Shown here: in pieces, positions 822-6,335 of the stretch | Numbering within the stretch: position 1 is the first letter of the stretch | Layout of the letters: each line of letters opens with the position of its first letter | Source of the DNA: a virus | Taxonomy: Duplodnaviria > Heunggongvirae > Uroviricota > Caudoviricetes | Strand: one strand, 5' to 3' | IMG/VR virus record: IMGVR_UViG_2648501498_000009 | Length of the DNA stretch: 8,831 nt | The notes under the pieces: generated by a model | Told to the model about the DNA's origin: nothing | The model's input: only the letters and a program-made list of their open reading frames with translations | The model's database searches: none | Made by a program: the position numbers and the translations under genes

Positions 822-1424
822 ATGAGCTATTTTCTGCGCAAAAAATGGATGGTAAATTTGTCCGGGGCAGGAAAAATTTTATGGGCGCTAAACATGAAAA
901 AAGATTCGTATCCTTATTTGATTTGCATGACAGTTTCAGGCCTGATCTTTATTTTCCTTTTCTTCTGGTGGCGGGCAGATATTTACAGGGTCACGTTTCT
1001 TAATCAGAGTATATCCCACTATTACATTCTGTTTAGCATGGGAATAGCTTTTCTGTTATCTCTGTTTTGGGTTAAGAAGGGGATAGTAAAACAAAGCGGC
1101 TGGAAGAGTCTGTCAGCATACCTTAAGGTTTATGCAGGGATGTGCATATTTGCTGGATTTTTTCTGATTATACCCCTTACAACACTAACTTATTTTTTGC
1201 CTGGAGAGACATCGTCTTATGTTGCACCGTATCGGTATACTTCCGGTAGTTCAAAAAGTTGTTCTGGAGCTGAGGTGGATGACCCCGATCTACATGAGAA
1301 TATTCGCATTTGCTATCCGTATGGCAATTATGAGTACGATAATATTATCTATGTTGAAAAGAAAATTAATACATTAGGTGCGGTAGTAACATATGCACAG
1401 ACCGCGCGTGATGATACTGAATGA
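822..1424 (+). CDS. Hypothetical membrane protein (200 aa from first ATG; alternative starts at 849 or 894), 3 predicted TM helices plus a roughly 75-aa C-terminal soluble domain; cargo gene of unknown function
   Basis: Long ORF in a visibly AT-rich block, on the strand opposite the pL operon. Three hydrophobic segments (YLICMTVSGLIFIFLFFWW, YYILFSMGIAFLLSLFWV, VYAGMCIFAGFFLIIPLTTLTYFL). A hairpin lies downstream. I recognise no homolog. Confidence 0.6.
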   Translation: MSYFLRKKWMVNLSGAGKILWALNMKKDSYPYLICMTVSGLIFIFLFFWWRADIYRVTFLNQSISHYYILFSMGIAFLLSLFWVKKGIVKQSGWKSLSAYLKVYAGMCIFAGFFLIIPLTTLTYFLPGETSSYVAPYRYTSGSSKSCSGAEVDDPDLHENIRICYPYGNYEYDNIIYVEKKINTLGAVVTYAQTARDDTE

Positions 1425-4572: not shown

Positions 4573-4705
4573 TCTTTGGGACTCCTGGCTGATTAAGTAT
4601 GTCGATAAGGCGTTTCCATCCGTCACGTAATTTACGGGTGATTCGTTCAAGTAAAGATTCGGAAGGGCAGCCAGCAACAGGCCACCCTGCAATGGCATAT
4701 TGCAT
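4541..4705 (-). CDS. cIII: cIII (FtsH protease inhibitor), 54 aa
   Basis: Internal ATG at 4705 gives [54 protein letters not shown], matching lambda cIII. It overlaps kil by 32 nt as in lambda. Confidence 0.9.
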   Translation of the reverse strand: MQYAIAGWPVAGCPSESLLERITRKLRDGWKRLIDILNQPGVPKNGSNTYGYPD

Positions 4706-4777
4706 GGTGTGCTCCTTATTTATACATAACGAAAAACGCCTCGAGTGAAGCGTTATTGGTATGCGGTAAAACCGCAC

Positions 4778-5146
4778 TCAGGCGGCCTTGATAGTCATAT
4801 CATCTGAATCAAATATTCCTGATGTATCGATATCGGTAATTCTTATTCCTTCGCTACCATCCATTGGAGGCCATCCTTCCTGACCATTTCCATCATTCCA
4901 GTCGAACTCACACACAACACCATATGCATTTAAGTCGCTTGAAATTGCTATAAGCAGAGCATGTTGCGCCAGCATGATTAATACAGCATTTAATACAGAG
5001 CCGTGTTTATTGAGTCGGTATTCAGAGTCTGACCAGAAATTATTAATCTGGTGAAGTTTTTCCTCTGTCATTACGTCATGGTCGATTTCAATTTCTATTG
5101 ATGCTTTCCAGTCGTAATCAATGATGTATTTTTTGATGTTTGACAT
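4778..5146 (-). CDS. ea10: Ea10-like early protein (122 aa)
   Basis: 122-aa ORF 72 nt downstream of cIII in operon orientation. Length and position match lambda ea10; the sequence is consistent with my recollection but I am less sure than for the Red genes. Confidence 0.7.
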   Translation of the reverse strand: MSNIKKYIIDYDWKASIEIEIDHDVMTEEKLHQINNFWSDSEYRLNKHGSVLNAVLIMLAQHALLIAISSDLNAYGVVCEFDWNDGNGQEGWPPMDGSEGIRITDIDTSGIFDSDDMTIKAA

Positions 5147-5162
5147 CTATTCATATCCTCAT

Positions 5163-5192
5163 AGATAAAAAATCGCCCTCACACTGGAGGGC
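5163..5192 (-). terminator. Intrinsic terminator upstream of ea10 (minus strand)
   Basis: Stem GCCCTC/GAGGGC with loop ACACTG (5175-5192), followed on the minus strand by ATTTTTTATCT. Confidence 0.45.
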
Positions 5193-5254
5193 AAAGAAGA
5201 TTTCCAATAATCAGAACAAGTCGGCTCCTGTTTAGTTACGAGCGACATTGCTCC

Positions 5255-5282: not shown

Positions 5283-5310
5283 AGTGCAGTGTTTATTCTG
5301 TTGTTAGTGC

Positions 5311-5337
5311 CAAAAATAAAGGCCGACTATGCGGCCT
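5311..5337 (-). terminator. Intrinsic terminator immediately downstream of the 149-aa membrane-protein gene
   Basis: Stem AGGCCG/CGGCCT with loop ACTATG (5320-5337), followed on the minus strand by TTATTTTTG. It starts 5 nt after the stop codon. Confidence 0.55.
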
Positions 5338-5341
5338 GAAA

Positions 5342-5791
5342 TTACTTAACCAATGATGCTGCATATTCGATAAGGTAAAGCTTTGGAGCCAGCAAAATTT
5401 CTAACCATGTCATATTGGTTACTACAGCAATAATAAAACTTACCCACAGAACAAAAACTGCAGCTAATGGTAAGATTAGAAAACTAATCTCACCGTTACT
5501 TTCCCAAATCATAGTCGGTTTGTATTTAGTCTTCCCCTTATCCCATGACCATCCTTCATCATCGAACTTACCAATTTCAACTTTTTGGTACTGTTTCTTC
5601 ATAAACCAGAAAACCAGCGGGATTGTTAAAATGGCTATTAATGTTTTAATCAGGCTATCAACCATATTCCATAGCAGCAACTGATGAACAACATCAGGAA
5701 TCTGTGCCTGGCTAAATGAGACAGCCGCGTCTATTCCATTACTGGCTTTTTGCAATAGTTCTATGAGAATCTTATTTGCCTGTTCTTCCAT
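5342..5791 (-). CDS. Hypothetical 2-TM membrane protein (149 aa) in the N-proximal sieB/ral accessory slot; possible superinfection-exclusion-type function
   Basis: AT-rich ORF with a good RBS (GGTGA, 5 nt before the ATG) placed right after the N stop. Two hydrophobic helices (LIKTLIAILTIPLVFWFM; ISFLILPLAAVFVLWVSFIIAVV). It has its own terminator. The function is inferred from position only. Confidence 0.6.
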   Translation of the reverse strand: MEEQANKILIELLQKASNGIDAAVSFSQAQIPDVVHQLLLWNMVDSLIKTLIAILTIPLVFWFMKKQYQKVEIGKFDDEGWSWDKGKTKYKPTMIWESNGEISFLILPLAAVFVLWVSFIIAVVTNMTWLEILLAPKLYLIEYAASLVK

Positions 5792-5799
5792 ATATCACC

Positions 5800-6099
5800 T
5801 CAAATAAGTGGTTTGCTGCCTAATTTCATTTTCTGGCGACCAACACAAGTCACACCCATTTCACTGCGTGGCTTGCTGTAGTAAATACGGTTCTGTTTAC
5901 GCTCGACTTCTTCTGCCTTCTGGCAGCGAAGGCTTCCGAGTGATGCTGCTTTATCTGCTCTGACGCAACCAGAGAGCTTTAGCGCAATCTTTCGCGCCAG
6001 TCGCTGCTCTTGCATTGCCTGTTCACGTTGAGCCTGTCTGCGTGCTCTGCGGCGATTTCTGGCGTTATCGTCAGCCAGATATGTAATGACTACTGTCAT
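5800..6099 (-). CDS. N-family transcription antitermination protein (99 aa)
   Basis: Strong GGAGG RBS. N-terminal arginine-rich motif (NARNRRRARRQAQREQ). The C-terminus KQNRIYYSKPRSEMGVTCVGRQKMKLGSKPLI resembles lambda N (…KNQRTWYSKPGERGITCSGRQKIKGKSIPLI). It is the first gene downstream of pL/nutL. Confidence 0.85.
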   Translation of the reverse strand: MTVVITYLADDNARNRRRARRQAQREQAMQEQRLARKIALKLSGCVRADKAASLGSLRCQKAEEVERKQNRIYYSKPRSEMGVTCVGRQKMKLGSKPLI

Positions 6100-6212: not shown

Positions 6213-6255
6213 TTCCCGCATTTCGGCGGGACAATCCCATCAATGTTAAAGAGCC
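6213..6255 (-). promoter_or_regulatory. nutL (boxA plus boxB)
   Basis: Minus strand reads GGCTCTTTAACA (boxA) then the hairpin TCCCGC-CGAAAT-GCGGGA (boxB). The boxB core is identical to the one in nutR at 7367-7384. Confidence 0.65.
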
Positions 6256-6289: not shown

Positions 6290-6335
6290 CTGATGACTTA
6301 AATTTAAGATTTCTTTAATTTGTGGTCAAGAGTGT
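6290..6335 (-). promoter_or_regulatory. pL promoter with oL operators (P22-type ATTTAAG…CTTAAAT sites)
   Basis: Minus-strand -35 TTGACC (6324-6329) and -10 TAAATT (6301-6306) at 17-bp spacing. An 18-bp operator ATTTAAGATTTCTTTAAT (6302-6319) overlaps it, with further TTAAG/CTTAA sites nearby. Confidence 0.5.

Follow-up and report, generated by a model that had tools for sequence, protein, structure and literature searches.

The gene directly behind the antiterminator gene N in IMG/VR virus record IMGVR_UViG_2648501498_000009 is an open reading frame (ORF) of 149 amino acids (aa), here called ORF149; the whole stretch of DNA analysed, 8,831 nucleotides (nt) long, is referred to as the window. 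We are confident that ORF149 is a single-gene accessory cassette, made of a ribosome-binding site (RBS), the ORF and a terminator, and that it encodes an inner-membrane bitopic-hairpin protein of the phage protein family PHROG 3054. In the window, this cassette is joined directly onto the 3′ end of N. ORF149 is a further copy of a catalogued, functionally blank phage family, and the junction with N is one among several recombinant arrangements in which the gene occurs. The family consists of stand-alone two-transmembrane (two-TM) proteins with a constrained stalk formed by the two termini, and it occurs in phages of many tail types and hosts, within early transcription units. We tentatively propose that ORF149 acts on the envelope during lytic growth, most likely in lytic-phase superinfection exclusion, and we assign this explanation as a whole, identity and mechanism together, a probability of roughly 0.4. 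The features that make up the cassette and its junction with N are as follows.

5342 to 5791, minus strand: ORF149, two-TM membrane protein of PHROG 3054, 149 aa from an ATG start (ORF list and sequence).
5800 to 6099, minus strand: N antiterminator gene, 99 aa (PHROG 271).
5795 to 5801, minus strand: Shine-Dalgarno sequence GAGGTGA, overlapping the N stop codon; read from the sequence, part of the junction motif AGGTGA[TG]ATATG.
5310 to 5337, minus strand: intrinsic terminator at the right end of the cassette, with a GC-rich stem of 6 base pairs, a 6-nt loop and a T-run.

The stop codon of N (TGA, 5802-5800) and the ATG of ORF149 (5791-5789) are separated by 8 nt. A first-pass annotation of this DNA had described a 149-aa AT-rich ORF downstream of N, and it is present at these coordinates, with a GC content of 37.1% vs 46.1% for the window and 49.7% for N. 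The same annotation had placed a strong RBS between the N stop and the ATG; the RBS is there, but it does not lie wholly between the two, as GAGGTGA overlaps the stop codon. N itself matches PHROG 271 ('anti-termination protein N-like') at 1.6e-36 and has a sub-threshold match to Pfam N_peptide (17.5 bits vs a cut-off of 27.9), and its C-terminus, ...GVTCVGRQKMKLGSKPLI*, is common to N genes that differ in their N-terminal half. Using 57 distinct close homologues, we obtained a pooled ratio of nonsynonymous to synonymous substitution rates (dN/dS) of 0.24 for ORF149, which, together with the very large family recovered by profile search, indicates that ORF149 is a real gene and no chance ORF. 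An antisense ORF of 89 aa (5415 to 5684, plus strand) was put down to chance in AT-rich DNA, as the selection pattern matches the minus-strand frame.

ORF149 matches PHROG 3054, which is annotated 'unknown function', at 7.3e-59, with residues 1-149 aligned to profile positions 1-137 of 137, and the same profile is matched by all of the diverse relatives sampled (71/71). The architecture of the family, namely a conserved N-terminal tail, two TM helices and a C-terminal tail APKLYLIEYAASLxK, is found in ORF149. A word-indexed search returned 475 clusters at 90% identity, and every named one is 'hypothetical'; the nearest clusters, at 97% identity, come from Escherichia albertii, and the hosts of the others are Escherichia, Shigella, Salmonella, Cronobacter, Citrobacter, Klebsiella and Kluyvera. 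An exhaustive hidden Markov model (HMM) search covered 1.84 billion representatives and recovered at least 2,449 clusters (50% identity) at E <= 1e-3, with 1,096 at E <= 1e-10, and the members found in this way are all stand-alone proteins of ~120-180 aa.

Among 50,697 phage records searched with tblastn, 181 contain the family. Strictly virulent carriers include phi92-like Justusliebigvirus (myoviruses), the Schitoviridae Salmonella phage FSL SP-058 and Vibrio 1.238.A, and the ~70-kb Klebsiella phage MY01. Further carriers include many other Vibrio phages, Pseudomonas phage Lyrsu03 and Rheinheimera phage Barba19A, and one distant representative comes from Achromobacter. Named members of PHROG 3054 are AMBK_46 of Salmonella phage Oslo, GALLYPH_30 of phage Gally and gp220 of phi92; gp37 of Escherichia phage HF4s, annotated 'TM helix-containing protein', also belongs to it, and the record note of Lyrsu03 likens its copy to the 'gene 34 protein' of Shigella phage Sf6.

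The first-pass annotation had suggested checking ORF149 against the Pfam SieB family and phage defence databases. At E <= 1, ORF149 matches no Pfam family, SieB included, and no model in PADLOC-DB 2.0. When the 71 members were scanned against Pfam, none of the families among the matches listed (25 of 44) was matched by more than one member, and PADLOC gave four singleton matches to generic two-TM models, which we treated as hydrophobic-composition noise. An NCBIfam match of ORF149 to PagP (E = 0.056, 12.7 bits vs a cut-off of 155) was dismissed. Our literature search found no paper that mentions PHROG 3054, and a search on lambdoid membrane proteins downstream of N returned nothing on ORF149.

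We examined the anatomy of ORF149 using hydropathy, family alignments, selection and structure prediction, which together divide the protein into the following parts.

5663 to 5791, minus strand: N-terminal tail, codons 1-43, an acidic helix (alignments; dN/dS 0.11; predicted local distance difference test score, pLDDT, ~90).
5603 to 5662, minus strand: TM helix 1 (TM1), codons 44-63 (hydropathy; dN/dS 0.16), with a lysine/arginine cluster, KKQYQK, on the loop side.
5486 to 5602, minus strand: inter-helix loop, codons 64-102, predicted beta-hairpin (dN/dS 0.28), hypervariable in length and sequence in the family.
5414 to 5485, minus strand: TM helix 2 (TM2), codons 103-126 (hydropathy; dN/dS 0.91, nearly neutral).
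5345 to 5413, minus strand: C-terminal tail, codons 127-149, amphipathic, TWLxIWxAPKLYLIEYAASLxK (dN/dS 0.07).

The two TM helices of the first-pass annotation are borne out by two hydrophobic segments (~aa 44-63 and 103-126, with Kyte-Doolittle 19-residue means up to 2.0 and 2.8) that are helical in the AlphaFold2 model, and exactly two hydrophobic segments are present in 68/71 family members. Conservation in the family is concentrated in the N-terminal ~45 and the C-terminal ~22 residues. Specifically, in the N-terminal tail F26 and P32 are invariant across the family alignments and L9, V34, Q37, L38, L39 and W41 are near-invariant, while the TM segments vary freely and the loop ranges from ~14 to more than 70 residues. 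The constraint on both tails suggests that the working part is a stalk made of both termini on one membrane face, and the dN/dS of 0.91 suggests that TM2 is a mere anchor. The inter-helix loop is dispensable. Just before TM2, many members (P0136, P0148, P0152, P0167, P0221 and P0250) carry a loop motif, Y-K-x-T-x-x-x-D-x-[DN]-G-D, that recalls acidic calcium-binding loops; the short-loop members P0142 and P0173 are entirely without it, and the motif is therefore placed outside the core function.

The AlphaFold2 model built from 71 diverse sequences (mean pLDDT 86.3, predicted TM-score, pTM, 0.64) was preferred to one built from 25 close sequences, which was poor (pLDDT 69). It shows a long helix (2-72), then a short beta-hairpin within the loop, and a return through helices 106-125, 128-134 and 136-148. 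A Foldseek search of the model against the PDB gave no match, a BFVD structure search returned uncharacterised family members only, and a sequence-profile search of the PDB returned designed coiled coils only. Among the 68 two-TM members, lysine plus arginine within 15 residues of the helices amount to 5.1 on the loop side vs 2.1 on the termini side, and the N-terminal tail averages 2.5 lysine/arginine vs 5.9 aspartate/glutamate residues. From the loop-side excess, the positive-inside rule predicts that the loop is cytoplasmic and that the stalk of the two termini is periplasmic.

The right end of the cassette is a terminator, which the first-pass annotation had noticed 5 nt past the ORF149 stop. 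Indeed, a stem-loop AGGCCG-CATAGT-CGGCCT (5337-5320), followed by TTATTTTT, begins 5 nt past the TAA, with an RNA folding energy of -12.6 kcal/mol (z = -2.3). A weak terminator-like site inside ORF149 (5463-5444), with 3 GC pairs, an 8-nt loop and a poor T-run, was considered non-functional. In close relatives the terminator accompanies the gene whatever lies downstream, be it ea10, an Agt-like gene, cIII-like genes or others. Oslo-type loci have a different stem in which pairing is kept (AGGTCGC/GCGGCCT), and in a more distant subgroup another hairpin again follows the gene. When a ral-containing locus (L025) is compared with lambda, ~490 nt are inserted exactly at the terminator following ral, with GGCCTTTATTTTTGG present in duplicate, one copy at each end. 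We read the 'own terminator' of ORF149 as a copy of the lambda-type post-ral terminator, duplicated at the cassette boundary.

The left part of the cassette is the constant junction motif AGGTGA[TG]ATATG, comprising RBS and ATG, which heads the ORF149 homologue in 60 related loci. The motif also heads alternative small genes after N in other phages, e.g. gp31, and it looks like a module junction or recombination linker between modules. Even in loci without an adjacent N, the RBS is preceded by 25 nt, GCAGCAAACCACTTATTTGA. The idea that this ~25-nt leader is cassette sequence that supplies the last codons of N was rejected after comparing N C-termini. Since GSKPLI* is the native N C-terminus (compare ...GKSIPLI* in lambda), the leader appears to be a relic of the N 3′ end that travels with the gene. 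The terminator, the deviant base composition and the presence or absence of the cassette between conserved flanks are moron-like traits; lambdoid morons, in the description attributed to Juhala et al. in 2000, are said to be promoter-gene-terminator units inserted between conserved genes.

Upstream of N, we found a candidate promoter and a candidate antitermination site.

6301 to 6329, minus strand: pL-like sigma-70 promoter, TTGACC-17 nt-TAAATT, 9/12 matches in a consensus scan (predicted).
6214 to 6254, minus strand: nutL-like site read from the sequence, with boxA GCTCTTTAACA at 6254-6244.

The promoter is the sole recognisable one upstream of N and ORF149 in the consensus scan, and it was assigned as pL because its position between the cI stop (6418) and N fits. 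In the nutL-like site, boxA was assigned by comparison with the boxA consensus, and a boxB hairpin, TCCCGC-CGAAAT-GCGGGA, lies at 6231-6214; no Rfam family matches the site. The first-pass annotation had raised the possibility of an internal promoter inside N, where the consensus scan finds no candidate on the coding strand even at 8/12 matches, and transcription of ORF149 is therefore expected from pL with N. A terminator scan shows no strong terminator between pL and the ORF149 stop, the site at 5310 to 5337 being the first strong one downstream of pL. Thus, N and ORF149 are expected to be immediate-early and independent of antitermination. Very probably pL, nutL, N and ORF149 form one unit that ends at this first strong terminator, and ORF149 should be made with N as an immediate-early product once repression is lifted, not from the repressed prophage. 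In ral- and gp31-type loci a terminator lies ~40 nt upstream of the homologue's ATG, so that the gene would be delayed-early there.

We also inspected the homologue in phages unrelated to lambda. In phi92 (gp220), FSL SP-058, Vibrio 1.238.A, Lyrsu03, LP.2 and Barba19A it is located among small early or accessory genes. The genes directly downstream of it in virulent phages are mutually unrelated, encoding an AAA ATPase, a YadA-like adhesin and an unknown protein; a conserved partner gene was rejected on this ground, and the homologue therefore acts alone. The downstream protein of FSL SP-058 (L086, 3427-4416) has collagen triple-helix repeats and a YadA-like membrane-anchor domain, i.e. it is a trimeric-autotransporter-type adhesin in the early region of an N4-like phage.

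In size and two-TM layout ORF149 resembles class II holins, and TM1 is rich in Gly, Ala and Ser in some members, features that would suit a lysis-timing protein of the holin, pinholin or antiholin-like kind. Its genomic position does not. In none of the phages inspected is the homologue beside a gene annotated for lysis; LP.2 has its putative lysis genes ~2 kb away, with several genes between, and Gally has separate holin, lysin and Rz genes. A holin would, moreover, be lethal in the earliest transcription unit. The first-pass annotation had named homology to a holin as a result that would speak against a defence role, and the Pfam and PHROG scans contain no match to a holin family. Together, these points make a lysis-timing role very improbable.

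In Barba19A (L092, 3444-7044) genes for a macro-domain protein and an NAD-salvage pair, ribose-phosphate pyrophosphokinase and nicotinate phosphoribosyltransferase, are located a few genes downstream of the homologue; gene sets of this kind are associated with counter-defence. These neighbours are among the points that would favour counter-defence against membrane-acting abortive-infection or exclusion systems, by a logic like that of T4 rII against RexAB. Early expression would agree with it too, as would the accessory, mosaic distribution, which is typical of anti-defence loci, and the co-occurrence with sieB in the same operon described below. However, all of these points are contextual, the protein has no similarity to known anti-defence proteins, and strong conservation of the stalk is unusual for arms-race proteins, so that we regard counter-defence as improbable.

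In Vibrio phage K366 (L090, 3501-3905) a lone opposite-strand homologue is located between tail-sheath and tail-completion genes, and an 'immunity to superinfection' gene is found 2.7 kb away in a similar opposite-strand island.

For lytic-phase superinfection exclusion we envisage the following mechanism. The two membrane helices would anchor ORF149, TM2 serving as a mere anchor, and the anchor would present a helical stalk in which the acidic N-terminal 43 residues pack against the C-terminal 23. This stalk, predicted to be periplasmic, would bind a conserved host envelope component or self-assemble; a phage-specific partner is less likely. A conserved host target or self-assembly is proposed because the stalk is conserved across tail types and hosts, which comprise Escherichia, Salmonella, Klebsiella, Vibrio, Pseudomonas, Rheinheimera and Achromobacter. 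The benefit would be realised during lytic growth, when the infected or induced cell would be protected against the entry of further phages. We rank exclusion first because characterised small, lone-acting phage inner-membrane proteins, which include Imm, gp15 and SieA, are exclusion proteins. In addition, the lone opposite-strand insertion in the tail module of K366 is in a position typical of exclusion-type accessory genes.

Several observations weigh against exclusion. The family is common to myo-, podo- and siphoviruses, in tension with a phage-specific target, and the exclusion proteins known to prevent DNA entry each act against a single type of injection machinery. The strongest constraint lies on the termini and not on the variable loop. 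In K366, the separate 'immunity to superinfection' gene nearby indicates that the two genes are not redundant there. The charge rule is the single basis on which the topology is predicted. Lastly, RNA levels of the Gally homologue, given below, rise in a way that a gene read only from pL would not.

Conservation of the stalk over hosts and tail types would equally suit a host take-over effector without exclusion, in which the stalk inhibits or re-purposes a conserved inner-membrane or periplasmic machine (division, envelope synthesis, a transporter or a protease are candidates) so as to optimise the lytic cycle. The location among early genes in virulent phages, where no partner gene was found, fits such an effector, and the lambdoid copies share their operon with the host-directed kil, cIII and gam. 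The cassette is, however, optional, freely exchanged and absent from lambda, indicating that it is unneeded for the basic cycle, and no search suggests a target. We consider take-over without exclusion unlikely, although it ranks first among the rival readings. It is also conceivable, though doubtful, that PHROG 3054 represents a new class of envelope effector, widespread in phages of Gamma- and Betaproteobacteria, which temperate as well as virulent phages would make within the first minutes after infection. Its stalk, displayed on the two-TM anchor, would act on a conserved component of the host envelope by a mechanism unlike those of Imm, SieA, SieB, gp15 and Cor. If true, this would amount to a generic, machinery-independent sealing or re-programming of the envelope of the infected cell.

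The RNA data concern GALLYPH_30 (LF82_104; loci L004 and L089), the homologue in phage Gally of E. coli LF82, which is 81% identical to ORF149; expression values are log2 values from PMC9928086, S1 Table. GALLYPH_30 stands at ~4.2 vs ~2.9 for N in overnight lysogeny broth (LB), ~7.0 vs ~4.0 in culture medium at 6 h, ~7.0 vs ~6.7 in macrophages at 1 h, and ~6.9 vs ~4.8 in macrophages at 6 h (PMC9928086). The overnight LB value corresponds to a normalised count of 18.6, which is background given a prophage median of 15.6 and a repressor count of 727 (PMC9928086). The repressor remains at log2 10.5-12, and the downstream gene gp29 is at ~4.5-5.0 in the 6-h medium and both macrophage samples (PMC9928086). 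In the 6-h medium and 6-h macrophage samples GALLYPH_30 RNA exceeds that of N by 7-12-fold and that of the downstream neighbour several-fold; in macrophages at 1 h it roughly equals that of N.

This 5′-to-3′ rise is not explained by pure read-through from pL, and it could mean some independent expression in the lysogen, at least with the Gally leader. It may come from a weak promoter located in gp31 or in the leader specific to Gally, in both of which our promoter scan found weak promoter-like candidates; alternatively, it may reflect a stable, terminator-bounded RNA from a spontaneously induced subpopulation. In the window the leader differs from that of Gally and is fused to N.

The rise to log2 ~7.0 and the weak promoter-like sites would be expected if the gene were a conditionally expressed moron that benefits the lysogen through defence or envelope fitness. 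The AT-rich composition relative to the neighbours, the terminator at its end and the moron-like placement in K366 point the same way. We nevertheless find a lysogen-serving moron decidedly improbable. The gene is at background in overnight LB, the authors of the Gally study call the prophage moron-free (PMC9928086), and even at its peak the Gally RNA is ~10-30-fold below the repressor. Furthermore, the N-fused leader of the window holds no promoter candidate, virulent phages carry the family, and the Gally gradient could be that stable fragment from spontaneously induced cells.

Further downstream of ORF149, the window contains the following features.

4778 to 5146, minus strand: ea10 homologue (DUF2528; Pfam 1.8e-47), the downstream neighbour.
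5165 to 5194, minus strand: second terminator-like hairpin just upstream of ea10, with 8 pairs and a T-run, shared with lambda.

ORF149 is a membrane protein in the N-to-ea10 region, where lambda- and P22-like phages have sieB and ral, and the first-pass annotation accordingly had it fill the sieB/ral slot, possibly as a SieB-family protein. Sequence comparison gives no support for this. The Pfam SieB model (PF14163) detects lambda SieB (1e-29) and Oslo SieB (5.9e-27) as positive controls and does not detect ORF149, BLASTP of ORF149 against lambda SieB yields no more than a chance match (E = 2.9 over 14 residues), and hhalign of the family profile against the SieB alignment gives a probability of 0.2%. 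As for Ral, a small soluble protein of ~66 aa, tblastn of the lambda protein against the window gives a best E of 0.57, away from ORF149. The statement that no ral-like ORF of 60 aa or more precedes ea10 proved correct: the ORF list contains none of at least 40 aa between ORF149 and ea10, and tblastn of the window with lambda Ral, lambda SieB, Oslo SieB and Gally gp31 as queries gives a best E of 0.39.

Gene order and strand are also at odds with SieB. In lambda and Oslo sieB is on the strand opposite to N, whereas ORF149 is co-directional with N; in Oslo the order is N, opposite-strand sieB and then the homologue AMBK_46. We sorted 80 viral contigs and three annotated phages by the genes that flank the homologue, and in all of them it is co-directional with N in the leftward early operon. 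In 10 loci it follows N directly and the 8-nt junction is the same; the N genes there include ones whose N-terminal halves are of the window, HF4s/Gally or lambda type. Its upstream neighbour is ral in 14 loci and elsewhere a small gp31-like gene (PHROG 2471). An opposite-strand sieB is located upstream in 10 loci (L003, L039, L044, L050, L052, L058, L069, L070, L078 and L082), and one of these, L039, has lambda-type N, SieB, Ral and then the ORF149 homologue. The co-occurrence with sieB and ral shows that ORF149 is an additional gene and no positional substitute, which removes a tempting mis-annotation, since location in the 'sieB slot' is no proof that a gene is sieB. Furthermore, sieB is said, in work attributed to Ranade and Poteete in 1993, to have its own promoter and to be expressed from the prophage. 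No promoter of its own is detectable for ORF149 in the window, and its family occurs in virulent phages as well. At the family level, SieB membership is effectively refuted by these comparisons, and that ORF149 is a SieB-family or SieB-like prophage abortive-infection protein is hardly credible; the fallback of the first-pass annotation, an unrelated membrane effector, still stands.

In the remainder of the window, the segment from ea10 to gam is essentially lambda-like, and the spacer between ORF149 and ea10, including the second terminator (5194-5173), is nearly identical to lambda. The window and lambda share the first 40 residues of ea10, and a close homologue of the window ea10, in L005, is 100% identical to lambda ea10. 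The Rfam element Lambda_thermo, the cIII thermoregulator, is found at 4660-4718 on the minus strand (88.5 bits vs a gathering score of 50). An O-like replication-initiator gene (7711 to 8142, plus strand) matches only positions 1-122 of 232 in PHROG 2365, and an ORF at 8130 to 8768 on the minus strand matches the C-terminal half (182-393 of 393) of PHROG 10544; the latter is taken as an insertion sequence (IS)-type transposase running towards the window end. The O-like gene is apparently interrupted, and the prophage is therefore probably defective. Between xis and a DksA-like zinc-finger gene lies an AT-rich ORF of 200 aa (822-1424, plus strand) with a hydrophobic N-terminal half. It is on the strand opposite to the leftward early genes, in a moron-like placement; its C-terminal 88 aa match PHROG 1416 (unknown function), and it has no Pfam or PADLOC match.

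This analysis flags a family of at least 2,449 clusters without a Pfam model, a solved structure or a published function that is apparently expressed very early. It identifies the two termini as the selected parts of the protein and singles out residues F26, P32, P136, E142 and Y143. Tractable members exist in Gally, HF4s and phi92 (gp220), and a function found in one of them could extend to thousands of phage genes. If the proposed role is true, a tail-type-independent mechanism of envelope exclusion or take-over could emerge.

Among known systems, T4 Imm comes nearest in function to the role proposed here. It is an early product and binds the tape-measure protein of the incoming phage (bioRxiv 10.64898/2026.03.06.709160). 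Like ORF149, it is a small early inner-membrane protein that acts alone, and its N-terminus is reported to be periplasmic (bioRxiv 10.64898/2026.03.06.709160); for ORF149, early expression is read from operon structure and membrane location from hydropathy and the structural model. The two differ in that Imm has a four-helix model with a hydrophobic core and a T4-specific target (bioRxiv 10.64898/2026.03.06.709160), whereas ORF149 forms a hairpin of two TM helices, carries a long conserved stalk and occurs in phages with unrelated injection machineries. Imm and Pfam Imm_superinfect gave no match in the Pfam scans of ORF149 at E <= 1, a comparison made at profile level with no direct alignment to T4 Imm.

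SieA of P22, encoded elsewhere in the genome (the immI region), and gp15 of HK97 resemble ORF149 in being small inner-membrane proteins of lambdoid or P22-like phages and in acting alone, in their case at DNA entry. They differ from it in prophage expression and in a specificity limited to a single family of ejection or tape-measure proteins. SieA acts via the ejection proteins gp16 and gp20 and is prophage-expressed (PMC10883804), and gp15 is cited in the Imm study as a prophage-expressed exclusion protein (bioRxiv 10.64898/2026.03.06.709160). No PADLOC or Pfam model links SieA or gp15 to ORF149. SieB, which aborts a superinfecting phage in mid-cycle (PMC10883804), shares with ORF149 its nature as a membrane protein and its place in the N-to-ea10 part of the lambdoid leftward early region; it differs in lying on the opposite strand, in showing no homology to ORF149 and in co-occurring with the ORF149 family.

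Morons resemble the cassette in deviant composition, a 3′ terminator, precise insertion and presence/absence polymorphism, whereas ORF149 has no detectable promoter of its own in the window, is co-directional with and embedded in an early lytic operon, and belongs to a family that is found in virulent phages as well. On present evidence ORF149 is no new kind of system; it would become considerably more interesting if its stalk acts on a conserved envelope component, unlike Imm, SieA and gp15.

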